In this document: in pieces, positions 12,194-48,380 of the stretch
Layout of the letters: every line of letters starts with the position of its first letter
Numbering within the stretch: the first letter of the stretch is position 1
Assembly: GCA_943354745.1 (NCBI GenBank)
Contig: CALRDB010000002.1
Location: 3,679-67,678 of the forward strand
Source of the DNA: Candidatus Nomurabacteria bacterium
Lineage (GTDB): Bacteria; Patescibacteriota; Minisyncoccia; Phycocordibacterales; UBA10002
Direction: 5' to 3'
DNA length: 64,000 nucleotides
Notes under the pieces: generated by a model
What the model saw: only the letters and a program-made list of their open reading frames with translations
Told to the model about the DNA's origin: nothing
The model's database searches: none
Program-made: the position numbers and the translations under genes

Positions 12194-13252
12194 TTAACTT
12201 ACGAGTGTAAGAATAACACCAAGAAGTGCCAACATGACGGAAAGGATCCAATAACGCATCGTAACTTTATACGACGGCCAACCAAGTGCTTCGAAGTGGT
12301 GATGGAGTGGAGAAATAATAAGCAATTTCCGTCCCAGAAATTTCTTATAAAATTTCTGTGCAATAACAGATGCACTTGTGACAAACAGAGGAAAGGCGAT
12401 AAGCAACAGAACAGAAATCCCCTCCCCTTCTCCCAGGGAATCTGTCATGAATGCGACGATTGAGATACAGAGCGTCAGTGCCATACTTCCGGTTTCCGAC
12501 ATATAGAACCGTGCAGGGGGGATGTTAAACCACAAGAAAGCCAAGATTCCTCCGAGCACTGCCGCACAAAATGCAGACAAATTTATTTGATTCTGAAAAA
12601 AAGCTATCGCTCCATATGCACCGAAGATGACTGCAAAAATACCACCAGCAAGACCGTCAATCCCATCAATAATTCCTCCAGAATACACGGCAAGCATCAC
12701 CAGAGTGAAAAGCGGAATAATGAGCCACCCAAGATAAAAGGGTCCCGTGAAGGGTAAGAAGACGGCTGAAACATCCAACTTGAAATGAAACCATATACCT
12801 GCAGAGATACCCACAATACATACAATCAAAAGCCGTTTGGTAAGTGATAATCCTCCAGCCCTATAACCTCCATTCCCGCGAATCTCAAGCAAATCATCAA
12901 TCCAGCCAATGCCGGCACCGATGAGAAGGGCGAGGAGCGGGATCCACGTTTGATCCCGACTAAGAAAATCAAGCTTGGAGAAAAGTGAGGTGGTAAAGAA
13001 AGCCCCCGCAGCATACACACCAAAGATGGCGAGAGCAGCTGAAAGCCAGATCACAATACCTCCCATACGAGGAGTACCGGTTTCTCTGGTTTGATGAAGC
13101 TGGTTGAAGAGTGGTGTCTCGCTACCCTTTCCCGGCCTCTTCTTCCACATCTTATGCGTATACAAATAGTGACTGAGCACAGGTGTTATGCCGATACCAA
13201 TCGTGAAGGCAAGAAGTGCAGGGATGAAGATTTTAATAAGATCGAGTAACAT
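12194..13252 (-). CDS. mraY: Phospho-N-acetylmuramoyl-pentapeptide transferase
   Basis: GIDGLAGG motif, polytopic membrane protein, adjacent to ftsW-murG. Confidence 0.88.
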   Translation of the reverse strand: MLLDLIKIFIPALLAFTIGIGITPVLSHYLYTHKMWKKRPGKGSETPLFNQLHQTRETGTPRMGGIVIWLSAALAIFGVYAAGAFFTTSLFSKLDFLSRDQTWIPLLALLIGAGIGWIDDLLEIRGNGGYRAGGLSLTKRLLIVCIVGISAGIWFHFKLDVSAVFLPFTGPFYLGWLIIPLFTLVMLAVYSGGIIDGIDGLAGGIFAVIFGAYGAIAFFQNQINLSAFCAAVLGGILAFLWFNIPPARFYMSETGSMALTLCISIVAFMTDSLGEGEGISVLLLIAFPLFVTSASVIAQKFYKKFLGRKLLIISPLHHHFEALGWPSYKVTMRYWILSVMLALLGVILTLVS

Positions 13253-16513: not shown

Positions 16514-17950
16514 CTATTTCTTATCCACTTTAATCCCAAGCTCCTTAAGCTGGTCCGGACGGGCATCTGACGGTGCGTCCATGACGGAGGTGTGGCCTCC
16601 TGCATCCATTGGGAACGCGATGACTTCACGGATGTTCGGCTCATTTGCGAGGAGCATTACAAGTCGGTCGAGGCCCGGAGCCATACCGGCATGCGGCGGC
16701 GCACCGTATTCGTACGCTTTGATGATGTGACCGAATCGTTCCTCGGTTTGCTCCGATGTAAGACCCATAAGCTCGAACACTTTTCGTTGTACTTTCGGGT
16801 CGGAAATACGTACACCACCCGACGCAAGTTCATAGCCGTTGCAGACAAGGTCGTACTGTTGGGCGCCGAGTCCATCGAGTTCGGGGCTACGCTTCCCCGC
16901 CGCTTCCTTGTTGATGTTCATGAGCTTCTCGACATGTTCCGGCCGCGGAGCGGAAAAAGGATTATGGGCGAATGTGTAGTGGCTATTGTTGTCATCCCAT
17001 TCCAAAAGTGGGAAATCAACGACCCATGCGAACGCCATGGTGTTCGGGTCTTTCTTTTCCTCTTCACTCCGCATGTCGAATTTATCAGCACCGAATTGCT
17101 TCATCGCTTCTTCATGTGTGAAGACAGGAAACGGCTTTCTAAGCACCGTCTTCCCCACCGATTCAGCCACGTGAATCATAAGTCCCTCAACAAGGTCGAG
17201 AACATCGCGTTGTTTTACAAACGCCATTTCAAGGTCTATCTGTGTGTGTTCGAACTGACGATCGCCGCGAAGGTCTTCGTCTCGCATCGCACGCGCGAGC
17301 TGGAAGTAACGCTCAAAGCCCGAAAGCATCAAAAGCTGTTTGTATTGCTGGGGAGCCTGTGGAAGCGCATAGAATTTTCCCGGCTGCATGCGTGAGGGCA
17401 CAAGAAAGTCGCGTGCGCCTTCGGGCGAGGTCTTGGTCAGCATCGGGGTCTCTATTTCGATGAAATCATTCTTGCCCATGTACTCGCGGATAAGGGAGGT
17501 CACCTTCGCACGCAGGCGAAGATTCTTTTGCAGGCGCGGTCGGCGAAGGTCGAGGTAGCGATACTTAAGTCGGGCCTCTTCCCCAATATCCATACCGTCA
17601 CTACGTACGTCAAAGTGCGGCGTTTCCGCCTGACTGATTACCTGTGCACTAAGCATCTCCAGCTCCACCTCCCCGTTCGGCTCGTTCTTGTTCACTAGTT
17701 TTTCGGGGCGCTTGTTCACTTTGCCGGAAACGGCAATAACCCACTCGGGACGAATGGTTCCCGCCAGCGCGTGCGCTTCGGCGTGGCTCGGGAGCGCTAT
17801 CATCTGGACTTTGCCACTCTCGTCACGAAGGTCAATGAAGATAAGTTTCCCGTGGTCGCGGCGAATGTCCACGAAACCCGCGACAGTTACTTCCTGTCCG
17901 ACCATTTCTTTGAGGCTTTTAATCATTGTCCTGTTTTCCGGTTGGCTCAT
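16514..17950 (-). CDS. aspS: Aspartyl-tRNA synthetase, short form lacking GAD insertion (likely non-discriminating)
   Basis: Class II motifs; QAPQQYKQLLMLSGFERYFQ, GAPPHAGMAPGLDRLVML; 478 aa. Confidence 0.85.
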   Translation of the reverse strand: MSQPENRTMIKSLKEMVGQEVTVAGFVDIRRDHGKLIFIDLRDESGKVQMIALPSHAEAHALAGTIRPEWVIAVSGKVNKRPEKLVNKNEPNGEVELEMLSAQVISQAETPHFDVRSDGMDIGEEARLKYRYLDLRRPRLQKNLRLRAKVTSLIREYMGKNDFIEIETPMLTKTSPEGARDFLVPSRMQPGKFYALPQAPQQYKQLLMLSGFERYFQLARAMRDEDLRGDRQFEHTQIDLEMAFVKQRDVLDLVEGLMIHVAESVGKTVLRKPFPVFTHEEAMKQFGADKFDMRSEEEKKDPNTMAFAWVVDFPLLEWDDNNSHYTFAHNPFSAPRPEHVEKLMNINKEAAGKRSPELDGLGAQQYDLVCNGYELASGGVRISDPKVQRKVFELMGLTSEQTEERFGHIIKAYEYGAPPHAGMAPGLDRLVMLLANEPNIREVIAFPMDAGGHTSVMDAPSDARPDQLKELGIKVDKK

Positions 17951-17952
17951 AC

Positions 17953-18300
17953 ACGCAAATTTATAAATAAAAAAGTCCTTACAAAATCACCCCAAAGGAT
18001 GGTTTTGTAAGGACGTTCTTACGAGCGTGGTGCCACCTTACTTTCCCTTCTGTCATTCCCATGAAAATGGGAATCCAGTCGGGCTTCTTCGTTAGCTATA
18101 GCGGGCTTTCCCGAAGGGTTCTACTGTGGGCGAGCAGCTGTCTTCAACTGCTTTAGCCCTTTTCTTCCCTTAGCCTGCCCCGACAAGTCTTCTTCGTCGG
18201 GACTCAGCCGTGTCATCGGCTTCAGTGCTTTCATATACTGTACCACGTGTGAGGAAAAAGAAAAGCCGGTCTTCCCCACCCAGGAGGAAGCCGGCCTTGG
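17953..18300 (-). promoter_or_regulatory. T-box riboswitch leader of aspS (antiterminator A1 GUAAGG/CCUUAC with 7-nt bulge UGGCACC; terminator 17968-18014); 5' boundary uncertain
   Basis: Minus-strand RNA: AAGGUGGCACCACG matches T-box AGGGUGGNACCGCG in 12 of 14 positions; UGGC complements tRNA-Asp GCCA end; 12-bp terminator GUCCUUACAAAA/UUUUGUAAGGAC + U6 immediately before AUG. Confidence 0.65.
18050..18080 (+). repeat. Hairpin repeat family copy b
   Basis: ctgtcattcccatgaaaatgggaatccagtc. Confidence 0.7.
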
Positions 18301-18568
18301 TTTAGGGTGCCAAACGGCAATCAGGTATGGACTACGCATAGAGCAAGGCCCTATAGGTTTTCCCATATCTTACAACCTATCAACCCTATGACGTCATGTC
18401 ATTTTTTCGCCGACTATGCCTCTCTTGCATGCGATGGCGAGGGAAGGTAGAGGTAGTACTTATCGCACCAGGCGAGTTCCCACTTTCCGTTCCCCAGATA
18501 GACGACAATCTATCATACTACCGACTTTAGGAATTTTTGCTAGTTGCCTTTCCGTCCACGCACCTTCT

Positions 18569-18871
18569 TTAATGACCTGTATTCAGTACCAGATGTGCAA
18601 ATGGCAGAAAATAATCCTGAAGCGATTTTTCATCCACTGAAAAATGATGTCTCTGTGACGGTAAATCTTCTACAACTTCCCGTAGCACATTAATTTCAGA
18701 GCGTTCTGCCGGCCGAAGCGGTAATTCAGAGAGAGCATCGAAGATTCCTCTTGCCCGTTTCATCGCCCCATCCGCGAGTGCCGTATCACCTTTTGCAAGG
18801 GCAGATTGGAGGCGAGAAACCTCGCTACCGAGGTTTGCTACATAAAAGGCACTTGTTCGCGCGGGTGTCAT
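18569..18871 (-). CDS. Hypothetical protein
   Basis: 100-aa ORF in operon-like arrangement with downstream ORF and trpS; overlaps next ORF by 4 nt. Confidence 0.45.
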   Translation of the reverse strand: MTPARTSAFYVANLGSEVSRLQSALAKGDTALADGAMKRARGIFDALSELPLRPAERSEINVLREVVEDLPSQRHHFSVDEKSLQDYFLPFAHLVLNTGH

Positions 18872-19212: not shown

Positions 19213-20166
19213 CTAATATAGTTTAACTCCAACCTTCTCCCTCACCTCGTCCATTTTGGCCGAGGCTTTTTCCTTGGCGCGGATGCCGCCTTCCTTTAAG
19301 ACTTTGAGTACTGCGGCGGTATCGCCTGCGATAGTCTTTCGCTTCTCCCGAAGCGGGCGGATAAAGGTTTTGATGTCGTTAATAAGCGCCTCCTTGAGTG
19401 CTTTGTACTTCCCCTCGTGCTGTTTGTACAAGACGGTCAATTCTTCTTCGGAACGGAAAAGTTTGTGCATCTCGTACACATTCTTTGGAATGCCTCCGCT
19501 TGAATCGGTGACAATACTCATCACGCACTTTTCAATTTCGGCATCTTCGGCAAAGAGCGGAATAGTGTTGCCGTAGCTCTTGCTCATCTTGCGGCCGTCA
19601 ATACCGGGGACAACGGCAACGTTCGCCAAAATCTTCGGTTCAGGCAATTTAAAAGTTTCGCCGTAAATGCGATTGAATTTCTCGGCGGTGTCGCGGGTAA
19701 TCTCGACGTGCTGTTTTTGGTCAGCACCAACAGGCACTACATCAGTGTCATAGAGAAGGATATCCGCGACCATAAGCATCGGGTAGTTAAAGAGCCCAAC
19801 ACTTATCTCCTTGCTCAGATTCGCCTCCGCAGCTTTGTAGGCATGTGCTCTCTGGAGGTACGGCACTGTGGTTATTGTGTCGAATATCCATGCAAGCTCG
19901 GTGTGTTCAGAAACATCCGATTGTTTGAAGATAATGGATTTTTCTGGGTCTAGACCAATCGAAAGATAGTCAATGGCTAGGTCAATAATGTTTTGCTTCA
20001 TCACCTTCGCGTCCTGAATGGCGTTAAGTGCATGGTAATCCGCAAGCATGAAAAGGCAATCGTGAGTCTCCTGCATATCCACGAATTGTTTCATCGCGCC
20101 GAAAAAGTTGCCGATATGCGGCCTTCCCGACGGTTGTATTCCCGATAACAGTATCTTTTTTGACAT
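19213..20166 (-). CDS. trpS: Tryptophanyl-tRNA synthetase
   Basis: GIQPSGRPHIGNFFGA (HIGH), KMSKSYGN (KMSKS); 317 aa. Confidence 0.9.
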   Translation of the reverse strand: MSKKILLSGIQPSGRPHIGNFFGAMKQFVDMQETHDCLFMLADYHALNAIQDAKVMKQNIIDLAIDYLSIGLDPEKSIIFKQSDVSEHTELAWIFDTITTVPYLQRAHAYKAAEANLSKEISVGLFNYPMLMVADILLYDTDVVPVGADQKQHVEITRDTAEKFNRIYGETFKLPEPKILANVAVVPGIDGRKMSKSYGNTIPLFAEDAEIEKCVMSIVTDSSGGIPKNVYEMHKLFRSEEELTVLYKQHEGKYKALKEALINDIKTFIRPLREKRKTIAGDTAAVLKVLKEGGIRAKEKASAKMDEVREKVGVKLY

Positions 20167-27256: not shown

Positions 27257-27400
27257 TATTAAAAATTAAAATCCTTCCGTCCAGGAAGAATTTGACATTG
27301 TATCTTCCCTCGCGGGCTAGATGGAGCACCGCGTTCTCACAAAACCGGTTGCCGGAGGATCCTTGAGCTAGTACTCTCCCCTCTCTCTTGATATATATTC
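27257..27400 (-). promoter_or_regulatory. SAM-I (S-box) riboswitch with intrinsic terminator in metK leader
   Basis: Minus-strand RNA AUCAAGAGAGAGGGGAGAGUACUAGCUCAAGGAUCCUCCGGCAACC…GGUGCUCCAUCUAGCCCGCGAGGGAAGAUA matches SAM-I conserved blocks (AUCAAGAGAGG, GGCAACC, GGUGC..A); hairpin CUUCCUGGACGGAAG followed by U-rich tract. Confidence 0.6.
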
Positions 27401-45378: not shown

Positions 45379-47214
45379 TTACTTTCCAAACATCCGCTTC
45401 ACCTCCGCTACCGCCTCGGCGAAGCTTTTGCCACCGTCGTAGTATTGGCGAAGCCCTTCAGAGAGCCGTGGCCAAACGATCTTCCGAAACTGCTGTGAGA
45501 TAAATATGATAGCCCCTTTATCCTTCGGACTCCGAATGTTCCGCCCCATGTGCTGAAGTGACTTGATCCCCACGCGCCATTGTTCAAGTTTGAAATGAGT
45601 GCTTTCACCCCACTTCCTCACCTCGAACACACTTGCTGGATCATCCGGCCTGCTGTATCCAGGACGAAGATCGAAGATGACCGGCGCGAGGCCGTCAGGA
45701 AGATCGAGCCCTTGCCCGAAGTTCGTTTCCGTACCGACCAGAGTCATACCGAGACCATCTTTGAACTCCTGCGCGGCAGTCCGAGCCATTCGTTCACCGC
45801 CATAGCTCACAGTGTCGAGACCCAGATTCGTCGAGTGAACCAAGAATTGATCACGCTCATCGTTTGAGACGACAATGACCAGACTCCGAATCCCCATGTC
45901 CGCCCACTCCTTGCACGCCTTGACCATGCTCTTGAGCGCTTTCTTCAGATCATCGGGCTTCCGGTTCTTCGTTGAGAGGTCCGGCGTATCGGACGGCATG
46001 AAGATCTTGGCGTTCTGTGGAGGAAAGCTTGACGGAAGCGAGAGAAACTCTCCTTCTTCCATTCCGGTTTCCCAACCGAACGTGTCTTTATCCCCGACAG
46101 TAGCCGAGAAGGCCGCGTACTCTTCGCCCAGTATTGAGCGGATGATAGGCGCCACTGTGTGTGCCTTAATCACCAGCTTATGCTGAACGCGCTTACCCTC
46201 CGCGAGTTCCTGCTGATGAAAGGCGTAGCTGTAGTTCATCCTTTTCCGTTTCAACGTGTCGAGCGAATACTCGAACGAGTGAATGTACCGGCGGATATCC
46301 CGCACCAGCACCTCCACTTGGCGAAGTGTTAGGGCCTCTTCCACTTCATCGACGGCCCCTTCACCTATTGCTTTGATGAGCTTATCTCCCAGCCTCGCCG
46401 GATTAATCGCTTCAAGCAGACCCATGAGCTCGAGGATTTCTCCATCCTCAATGATGGTCGGCTTCCACGCAGCCTTCTTCTTAACGATGTCAATCATGCG
46501 TTTCTGAAACTTCGCGAGAAGATCCGTCTCATCGACCTCAAGTCTCTCGAGTAGTTTGACGGCTCGACCGAGGTGATAGTCACTAATCTCGTAAGAGAGC
46601 GTGCGACGAACCACGTCGCCCATTAGGTGCGCTTCGTCAATGACGAGCACCTTCGGCTTCTCCCACCGCTTCGTGAAAAGCTGAGAGAAGAGATAATACG
46701 CAAAGGTGCAGAGCACGATTGGCGCGTTCATAGCCTTGTGGGTGAAGTGATAGTACTGACAGCGCTCCGCGTCCTTCTCGTGCGTCTCCCCCGTTTTGAG
46801 GTTGACGCGATGCGGACAGTTCCGCAGGAAAGAGCAGGCGATTTCATCCGCGCGATATTGAACATCTTCCGGCTTGGTCTCAAGCGAGAATCGTTCATCC
46901 GCGTTGTCCTCGTAGTAGTAGCACGGGAAATCATGTTTACCCACCACGATGGCGAGGTCGAGATATTCCCGATAAATCTGCTGGAGGATGGTCTTGTTCG
47001 GCGTGATGAGAAACAGCGGTTTCTTGCCCGCGTTTGCCGCGGCCTTCAGAATGGCATACTCGACGGCAGTCTTGCCGTGGCCGGTCGGCATCTCAATGAT
47101 GGACTTCGGATGCTGTGCCCAGAATTCGAGAACCTGCCGCTGTTGCGGGCGCATAACGCTGTGCTTCTCTGACGGAAATGCCGAACAGAGTTCGGCAAAG
47201 GTTTGTCTGCTCAT
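45379..47214 (-). CDS. DinG/XPD (Rad3)-family ATP-dependent DNA helicase with Fe-S domain
   Basis: Walker A EMPTGHGKT, DEAH box VIDEAHLM, four Cys between motifs I and II; ORF-track start TTG at 47256, ATG at 47214. Confidence 0.75.
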   Translation of the reverse strand: MSRQTFAELCSAFPSEKHSVMRPQQRQVLEFWAQHPKSIIEMPTGHGKTAVEYAILKAAANAGKKPLFLITPNKTILQQIYREYLDLAIVVGKHDFPCYYYEDNADERFSLETKPEDVQYRADEIACSFLRNCPHRVNLKTGETHEKDAERCQYYHFTHKAMNAPIVLCTFAYYLFSQLFTKRWEKPKVLVIDEAHLMGDVVRRTLSYEISDYHLGRAVKLLERLEVDETDLLAKFQKRMIDIVKKKAAWKPTIIEDGEILELMGLLEAINPARLGDKLIKAIGEGAVDEVEEALTLRQVEVLVRDIRRYIHSFEYSLDTLKRKRMNYSYAFHQQELAEGKRVQHKLVIKAHTVAPIIRSILGEEYAAFSATVGDKDTFGWETGMEEGEFLSLPSSFPPQNAKIFMPSDTPDLSTKNRKPDDLKKALKSMVKACKEWADMGIRSLVIVVSNDERDQFLVHSTNLGLDTVSYGGERMARTAAQEFKDGLGMTLVGTETNFGQGLDLPDGLAPVIFDLRPGYSRPDDPASVFEVRKWGESTHFKLEQWRVGIKSLQHMGRNIRSPKDKGAIIFISQQFRKIVWPRLSEGLRQYYDGGKSFAEAVAEVKRMFGK

Positions 47215-47356
47215 AATCAGTCTTCGGATGTTTGATGTTTGGTGTTCCCTTGTCAAAATCCACTCCCGAAGGAGTGAACTGGAGTCTTAGCCCCGTGCTA
47301 ATCCTCGACGCACACTAACAGGATTTCTCGTCTACGTCAAGGTTTGGTTACGGGTC

Positions 47357-47385
47357 TGTCATTCCCTTGGAAAAGGGAATTCAGT
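47357..47385 (+). repeat. Hairpin repeat family copy f
   Basis: ctgtcattcccttggaaaagggaattcagtg. Confidence 0.65.
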
Positions 47386-48380
47386 GCTGTAGTCCAAATA
47401 TAAAAAGCGCCTCGACGAATCGAGACGCTTATTCCTGACCCAACAAAAGAGCACCTCACATTGGATGAGAATACCCGAACTGACAATACCCGACCGAGAA
47501 GGACCAAAATTGAAGCGTTCCCGAAAACGAGAACGCTTCCCCGCACAGGACACTACCTGACTGCACTGAAACCAACCACTCCGAAATTGAAGCGTCCCGA
47601 CGAATCGAGACGCCTCATCCGGACTCGAGCATTCACAAACGAACAGGACGGAACCTGACTGAACGACGCCGCATGCCACCTCAATCGGCATTCCGCTTTA
47701 GAAACGGAATACCCCCGTACCTTACCTTTGAAATGAGAGGCAAAATTCGAGCATCCCGACTAATTCTCGGGATGCTCGCCTGACAAAGGTGTACCATGAT
47801 TGAGCGAGCCGGCGAAAACCGACTCGCTCCCGAACAGAACTCTACGTCACGCCTCCGAAACAAACGACTGCCTACGGGGCGATACAAAACAGGTGCATAC
47901 GAAGACTTGCCGTAATTGCCGAACACCTTCGAAAAGGCGCTCGGCTCCACACCGAACCTGTTCTCGCAGGACACTACAACAGAAATGTTGGCTTGAGCTA
48001 ACTCATGCAAGCCACACGGCACATCTGATGACCTCAACTGAGCGAGCCGGCCGAAACCGACTCACCCCCGAACGTAAACAGACAGCTCTGCACGGGACAA
48101 TAGCGCACCCAACCTAAACCGACACCACCTGACCATAATTACCAAGCTCCTACGAACAAGAGCTTGGTTCCCGAGCGTACCAAGAAGCGCGAAACAGAAC
48201 AGTTGACTGCGAAACATGACTTTAGAGAACCACAATTGTCGAATCCGTGCTCGCACGGATTCGACCCGAGGAATGACTCAAACAAACATACTGGACTGAA
48301 CGGAACTTTACACTTGTGTGCCCCAAAATAGGTGACCGCAATCACTGCGACAACGAATTGTCGAAGTACGAAATACCGAG

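Follow-up and report, generated by a model that had tools for sequence, protein, structure and literature searches.

A putative tRNA(Asp)-sensing T-box riboswitch with an ultrashort Stem I and an intrinsic terminator upstream of aspS in a bacterium of the Candidate Phyla Radiation

Transcriptional T-boxes generally need a long Stem I with interdigitated T-loops, whereas short or ultrashort Stems I have been described for translational ileS T-boxes, mostly of Actinobacteria, and this difference between classes has been explained by the speed at which a transcriptional switch must capture its tRNA (PMC7583486 section 6.2; PMC7778990; PMC11297988). The short Stem I of the actinobacterial ileS T-boxes cannot reach the tRNA elbow; their K-turn is essential, and a Stem II purine string and a pseudoknot clamp the codon-anticodon helix (PMC7583486). 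The class-II model of TBDB was searched only in Actinobacteria, and class-I hits with truncated Stem I were added (TBDB paper).

Here, we analysed the aspS leader in a 64-kb stretch of bacterial DNA (hereafter the window). This leader is very probably a T-box riboswitch that senses tRNA(Asp) through a short-Stem-I decoding module and controls aspS by attenuating its transcription. It spans approximately 263 nt on the minus strand (from about 18232 to 17969; Table 1). A preliminary description of the region had mentioned several hundred nt of structured leader, which is right as to structure (folding z = -7.0 versus shuffled sequences) but not as to length. The aspartyl-tRNA synthetase (AspRS) encoded downstream has 478 aa, compared with 590 aa in the model, and the GAD insertion domain is missing. 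We favour the ATG at 17950 as its start because conserved Arg-Thr residues of AspRS are located upstream of position 17926, the second ATG, where public gene calls begin instead (470 aa). The best relatives of this AspRS come from metagenome-assembled Parcubacteria, Sungbacteria and Paceibacterota, with identity up to 83%, and the window is assigned to the Candidate Phyla Radiation (CPR) on this basis. The earlier remark that T-box regulation would be unexpected outside Firmicutes, Actinobacteria and Chloroflexi was right in spirit: the genome belongs to the CPR/Patescibacteria, and our literature search, whose coverage was incomplete so that an earlier mention may exist, returned no paper joining T-boxes with CPR, Patescibacteria or Parcubacteria. 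A look-up with the 470-aa form of AspRS led to four independent assemblies of this organism (the 478-aa form gave no match), and all of them carry the leader with 100% identity. This rules out an assembly artefact, and no extra covariation was gained from these copies.

Table 1. Positions in the window of aspS and of the elements recognised or predicted in its leader
Feature	Position	Strand	Sequence or description	Basis
aspS, probable regulated gene	16514..17950	(-)	478-aa bacterial-type aspartyl-tRNA synthetase without GAD insertion	NCBIfam NF001750, 2.6e-184, two stretches
Intrinsic terminator and U6	17969..18016	(-)	ACGUCCUUACAAAACCAUCC-UUUG-GGGUGAUUUUGUAAGGAC then UUUUUU (17969-17974)	RNAfold
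T-box sequence and antiterminator	18007..18044	(-)	AAA-GUAAGG-[UGGCACC]-ACG-loop-CGU-CCUUAC	
Stem III	18045..18083	(-)	CCCGA-CUG-G-AUUCCCAU-UUUC-AUGGGAAU-GA-CAG-AAGGG, flanked by purine runs	RNAfold
Stem IIA and putative IIB	18094..18113	(-)	IIA CGGG-AAAG-CCCG (18102-18113), F-box-like CCCGCUA after it	
Stem II with S-turn	18116..18169	(-)	GGG-AAGAAAA ... ACAGUAGAA-CCC; S-turn strands 18166-18160 and 18125-18119	RNAfold
Extra hairpin between Stems I and II	18179..18201	(-)	CCCGAC-GAAGAAGACUU-GUCGGG; lineage-specific	RNAfold
Ultrashort Stem I	18202..18228	(-)	K-turn GC-ACU-GA ... GA-GU; 5-bp AGCCG/CGGCU; 6-nt apical loop AUGACA	R1 alignment
Specifier codon GAC (Asp)	18214..18212	(-)	followed by conserved purine A at 18211; apical loop NN-GAC-A	
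Extended -10 promoter element (predicted)	18237..18245	(-)	TGGTACAGT	sequence

Two described systems come closest. With the actinobacterial ileS class II (M. smegmatis, M. tuberculosis, N. farcinica), the window leader shares the 5' K-turn, the specifier in the apical loop, the lack of an elbow-binding distal Stem I, the Stem II S-turn, Stem IIA/B with an F-box-like CCG(U/C)NA, Stem III and the T-box bulge. Its numbering also matches that of the solved N. farcinica ileS T-box (PMC7583486), with the specifier at nt 16-18, the purine at nt 19 and the S-turn adenines at about nt 38-39; the S-turn purine string of the actinobacterial class lies at about nt 36-40. It differs from that class in having an intrinsic terminator with a U run instead of a Shine-Dalgarno sequestrator, and in its CPR/Patescibacteria host, its Asp specificity (Asn in relatives), its gene (aspS) and its extra hairpin between Stems I and II. 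With the transcriptional T-boxes of Firmicutes (RF00230; B. subtilis tyrS and glyQS), the leader has in common the T-box sequence, the UGGN antiterminator bulge and the terminator with its U run, in addition to the K-turn, the specifier with its purine, the S-turn, Stem IIA/B and Stem III; the logic by which uncharged tRNA causes read-through into an aminoacyl-tRNA synthetase gene would presumably be shared as well. Unlike them, it has no long Stem I with interdigitated T-loops, and thus no contact with the tRNA elbow would be made, and it scores far below the RF00230 threshold (see below).

The 3' part of the leader agrees with the preliminary description in every element that had been named. 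The 12-bp terminator and U6 ahead of aspS are present: 12 contiguous pairs, one C/A mismatch and 5 further pairs form a 17-bp stem with the loop UUUG, which ends approximately 20 nt ahead of the start codon. Its strand CCUUAC (18012-18007) can pair alternatively with GUAAGG (18041-18036) as helix A1, and the 7-nt antiterminator bulge UGGCACC (18035-18029, with UGGC at 18035-18032) is located between A1 and helix A2 (ACG/CGU). The T-box string AAGGUGGCACCACG at 18039-18026 is identical to the T-box consensus AGGGUGGNACCGCG at 12 of 14 positions. The sharing of CCUUAC makes terminator and antiterminator mutually exclusive, and their folding energies are -22.9 and -8.7 kcal/mol, respectively; this asymmetry is as expected if the switch terminates unless a ligand is bound. 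Pairs of A1 and A2 are 97% paired in the family alignment described below, with covariation at 4 pairs.

All short-Stem-I T-boxes described so far are considered translational (PMC7583486, PMC7778990, PMC11297988), and the end of the window hairpin is close to the ATG. Both points would suit a translational or dual-action T-box resembling actinobacterial ileS, in which the 3' hairpin would mainly hide the ribosome-binding region. However, neither a Shine-Dalgarno-like sequence nor a start codon is contained in the hairpin of the window, and U6 follows it. Among the short- and intermediate-Stem-I leaders of the family, a terminator hairpin with a U run was found in 35 of 39, the remaining four having interrupted U runs, and it also occurred in both canonical controls (37/41 rows, counted by script). 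The distance from terminator to start codon in the family varies from 30 to more than 200 nt, and a small first ORF sometimes follows. The U6, the lack of a ribosome-binding site or start codon within the hairpin and the recurrence of the terminator design in the family point to transcription attenuation, and we regard translational or dual action of this leader as very unlikely.

The 5' part departs from what had been presupposed. Instead of a canonical long Stem I, we found a 27-nt K-turn hairpin that lacks the internal specifier loop, the AG bulge and the distal loop. The family covariance model R1 (see below) aligns AGCACUGAAGCCGAUGACACGGCUGAG to Stem I exactly, and the specifier, which had been expected to be GAC or GAU, is GAC in the apical loop of this hairpin. 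Among the window and the first relatives, the sequence of the stem varies while its pairing is kept (GCCG/CGGC, CCUG/CAGG, CCCG/CGGG and CUCG/CGAG), and the loop of the first relatives is NN-GAC-A, or AAAACA in locus L012. All three specifiers of the family (GAC, AAC and AUC) have C as their last base and A as the next nucleotide, in agreement with the 'C-rule' of known T-boxes (PMC7778990) and with the purine after their specifiers (PMC7778990, PMC7583486).

Further leader hairpins also carry GAC in their loops, namely the linker hairpin at 18179-18201 and the tip of Stem II (AAGACAG). Together with the long Stem I that the preliminary description assumed, they might suggest a T-box of the canonical class I, with a long Stem I left unrecognised in the upstream leader. 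We rejected both triplets as specifiers because the elements bearing them are absent from relatives (the extra hairpin is missing in most family members), whereas the NN-GAC-A hairpin is positionally invariant in the family. The promoter prediction argues in the same direction. Of 33 family leaders, 21 have the motif TGnTAnnnT ending 6-9 nt ahead of the K-turn, compared with 4.65 expected from shuffles, and the predicted -10 element of the window lies 7 nt upstream of the K-turn. An extended -10 element next to the K-turn implies that transcripts would begin at Stem I (in the window at approximately 18230-18232, a few nt before it), so that a long Stem I would have no space to form; the hairpin with a U run at 18255-18298 terminates the preceding transcription unit and lies outside the aspS leader. 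Considering also that RF00230 skips the Stem I block, and that its threshold is reached by canonical controls but by none of the 17 family members tested, the probability of a hidden long Stem I is next to negligible.

Several observations concern the surroundings of the leader. Between a 100-aa ORF (18569-18871) and the terminator at 18255-18298, approximately 270 nt on the minus strand (18299-18568) contain no called gene; only weak, noise-level Rfam matches were obtained there, and the region could be a long 3' UTR or a small RNA. An 81-aa ORF at 18121-18366, which overlaps the leader, is absent from public gene calls and is probably spurious. The trpS gene (19213-20166, minus strand) is located just upstream of the aspS unit, with two small ORFs between them; it has no T-box-like leader, and neither R1 nor Rfam gave any other T-box within the 64-kb window. 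At 27297-27397 (minus strand), a SAM-I riboswitch match of 45.0 bits slightly exceeds the Rfam threshold of 44.4; with it, this CPR genome would have riboswitches of two classes.

The middle of the leader holds the elements that follow Stem I in known T-boxes as well as the extra hairpin. Insertions of hairpins at the junction of Stems I and II have occurred independently in the window and in L070, L095, L098 and L101, which suggests that this site is permissive. GAAGAA and GUAGAAC of the Stem II S-turn are conserved in the family, all five pairs of the lower helix of Stem II covary, and both closing pairs of IIA show changes on both sides. The IIB pseudoknot of the window, AGC (18107-18105) with GCU (18096-18094), is inferred from complementarity and would have just 3 bp; many relatives have such complementarity at an equal offset with compensating changes (AAACUC/GAGUUU, UGAGC/GCUCA and AACCC/GGGUU). 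The hairpin at 18050-18078, which had been noted as copy b of a hairpin family positioned like Stem III, indeed lies between IIA/B and the T-box sequence. A look-alike of the Stem III hairpin is present at 47360-47382 on the minus strand (CUG-A-AUUCCC...GGGAAU-GA-CAG; 0 matches expected by chance). It directly follows a terminator, in a region of approximately 130 nt upstream of a 625-aa helicase-like ORF (45379-47256; context 47257-47400), and an E-value-based Rfam scan gave no meaningful match around it.

Rfam at its gathering threshold reports no T-box in the window. The preliminary description had proposed a search with RF00230 as its check. With an E-value threshold, this model gives a local match at 18006-18234 on the minus strand (E = 1e-4 for the 751 nt searched), to which the AGUA/IIA part and the T-box sequence contribute the score while the whole Stem I block is skipped; at 29.9 bits versus a gathering threshold of 93, the check taken by its threshold would wrongly reject the element. 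The low score results from the ultrashort Stem I, and the threshold result is thus a false negative. Likewise, none of the 17 related leaders tested passed the RF00230 threshold, whereas the canonical controls L063 and L073 scored 122.7 and 130.7 bits.

R1 is a covariance model of 17 related leaders from which the window was left out. It matches the window at 18006-18229 on the minus strand with 55.6 bits (E ~2e-12 over 64 kb). This is lower than for the relatives (about 120 bits), and the window copy has three insertions. The sole other R1 match in the window (12917-13010 on the plus strand, 17.8 bits) was dismissed as chance: it lies inside a 352-aa ORF of the opposite strand and has no terminator. 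Over 87 sources, R1 recovered 41 leaders. In the alignment of these 41 sequences, which was fitted to R1 and therefore somewhat favours the structure (Stem I is anchored by invariant flanks), 96.1% of cells were paired, compared with 77.3% after shuffling and 41-47% with slid partners; 19 of 26 pairs change on both sides, and the covariation score of 0.478, versus 0.179 for shuffled data, was reached in 0 of 500 shuffles. In Stem I, the 4-bp hairpin core is paired in 100% of the family and three of its four pairs covary, as does the C-stem pair (CG and GC). A hand-checked seed was paired in 17 of 17 sequences at all six Stem I pairs. As MAFFT misaligned Stem I in the first four leaders, anchor-based parsing and the covariance model were used instead. 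The core motifs, the R1 match and the covarying family bear out the original proposal of a T-box leader controlling aspS.

The family comprises approximately 38 related leaders in CPR genomes and metagenomes; the architecture is shared by five genome loci and approximately 35 metagenome loci. Among 30 CPR aspS loci, most have no leader. Three of the genome loci with a leader (L017, L018 and L027) contain GGUGGCACC approximately 95 nt before aspS, and L012 contains GGUGGUACC before a small ORF and aspS. Metagenome contigs were scanned with the pattern GTAGAACN{34,64}AAAGTNRGGTGGNACCNCG, i.e. GUAGAAC and AAAGU separated by a gap of 34-64 nt, which returned 43 loci; the family sampled in this way is biased, window-like forms with a long Stem III are excluded, and other specificities may exist. 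About 35 of the 43 loci share one build: a K-turn GC-NNU-GA-N ... N-GA-GC/GG whose stem of 4-5 bp is closed by a 6-nt loop, Stem II, in which GAAGAA faces GUAGAAC, a small hairpin IIA, sometimes Stem III, and finally AAAGUNRGGUGGNACCNCG and a terminator. Four of the scan matches (L063, L065, L073 and L097) are T-boxes with the ordinary long Stem I, and we used them as controls.

The specifier triplet can be compared with the gene downstream. GAC was found in 28 leaders (window included), of which 26 have UGGC in the bulge and two have UGGU. AAC was found in seven or eight leaders, among them L012 (2342-2545), L069, L078, L081, L088, L095 and L098; in some it is located in the apical loop, in L088 and L095, whose Stem I is of intermediate length, an internal loop carries it on the 3' side, and the bulge is UGGC in some of them and UGGU in others. 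AUC occurs in two leaders, L076 (2450-2601) and L090 (2084-2219), both with a short Stem I, UGGU and a terminator. Every GAC or AAC leader on a long enough contig precedes an AspRS gene, in some loci with a small HD- or NUDIX-like ORF in front of it, and the AspRS is either of the bacterial type without GAD or a non-orthologous archaeal-type aspartate--tRNA(Asn) ligase (NF003483, E down to 1e-150). The AUC leader of L076 precedes ileS (TIGR00392, 1.5e-163), whereas that of L090 ends at the contig edge; these two leaders resemble the actinobacterial ileS T-boxes, from which the terminator sets them apart. We take GAC at 18214-18212 as the specifier above all because triplet and enzyme agree for two amino-acid families and two unrelated types of AspRS.

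tRNA(Asp) generally has the anticodon GUC and the discriminator base G73. The UGGC of the window could pair with the G73-CCA of such a tRNA; no gene for tRNA(Asp), tRNA(Asn) or tRNA(Ile) was found in the window or in the 75 fetched loci. The earlier suggestion that UGGC suits an Asp-type tRNA is in line with the family, in which UGGC goes with most GAC leaders and UGGU with both Ile leaders (2/2); UGGU in the two exceptional GAC leaders could form a wobble pair with G73.

The AAC (Asn) specifier before aspS operons suggests that a non-discriminating AspRS is controlled by tRNA(Asn) in CPR bacteria. In Clostridium acetobutylicum, a T-box with an Asn specifier reportedly controls the tRNA-dependent asparagine pathway. 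The AAC relatives resemble that case in preceding aspS operons, which is sensible if the AspRS is non-discriminating; they differ from it in the short Stem I of the CPR leaders, and the window leader itself carries GAC.

The closest aspS relatives of the window, L001 (83% aa identity) and L013 (80%), have no leader at all, and the element is thus dispensable in this lineage. With the lower R1 score and the three insertions of the window copy, this might indicate a decaying or non-functional T-box that is being lost. Such a remnant is highly improbable in our view: the K-turn, the specifier with its A, the S-turn, IIA, AAAGU with the T-box sequence, A1 and A2, the terminator and U6 are all intact, all helices can form, and four other members of the family have insertions at the same tolerant site.

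A functional tRNA(Asp)-sensing attenuator could work as follows; from the leader and its relatives, we infer the promoter, the start of the transcript, the binding of tRNA, the docking in three dimensions and the effect on aspS. Transcription would start just upstream of the K-turn, and GAC-A in the apical loop of the first hairpin would meet the anticodon GUC of tRNA(Asp). Stem II with its S-turn and IIA/B may dock alongside and clamp the codon-anticodon helix, as a substitute for an elbow-binding distal Stem I. With uncharged tRNA, the 3' GCCA would pair with UGGC and stabilise the weak antiterminator, so that RNA polymerase would read into aspS. With charged tRNA, the stronger terminator with U6 would form, and transcription would stop approximately 20 nt before the start codon.

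By every structural criterion, the Rfam score excepted, the element is a member of the T-box superfamily. It fits neither of the described classes, as it combines a class-II decoding module with a class-I platform in a new host phylum and with Asp/Asn specificity. We somewhat favour the view that CPR/Patescibacteria harbour an undescribed class of T-boxes, in which an elbow-free ultrashort Stem I is joined to a kinetically controlled terminator and which senses tRNA(Asp), tRNA(Asn) and tRNA(Ile). If true, such a class would contradict the rule that transcriptional T-boxes require a long Stem I with interdigitated T-loops, and a family with a short decoding module and a terminator is a direct test case for the kinetic argument on tRNA capture. 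Annotation based on Rfam misses these short-Stem-I terminator T-boxes. In some members, the stretch that begins with the K-turn and closes with the antiterminator is only approximately 120 nt long, and such a compact scaffold may suit engineering. For the hosts, the AAC leaders before aspS hint at a non-discriminating AspRS and an indirect pathway to Asn-tRNA, and the family as a whole would bring tRNA-sensing regulation to the ultra-small genomes of the CPR, in which regulatory RNAs are barely charted.
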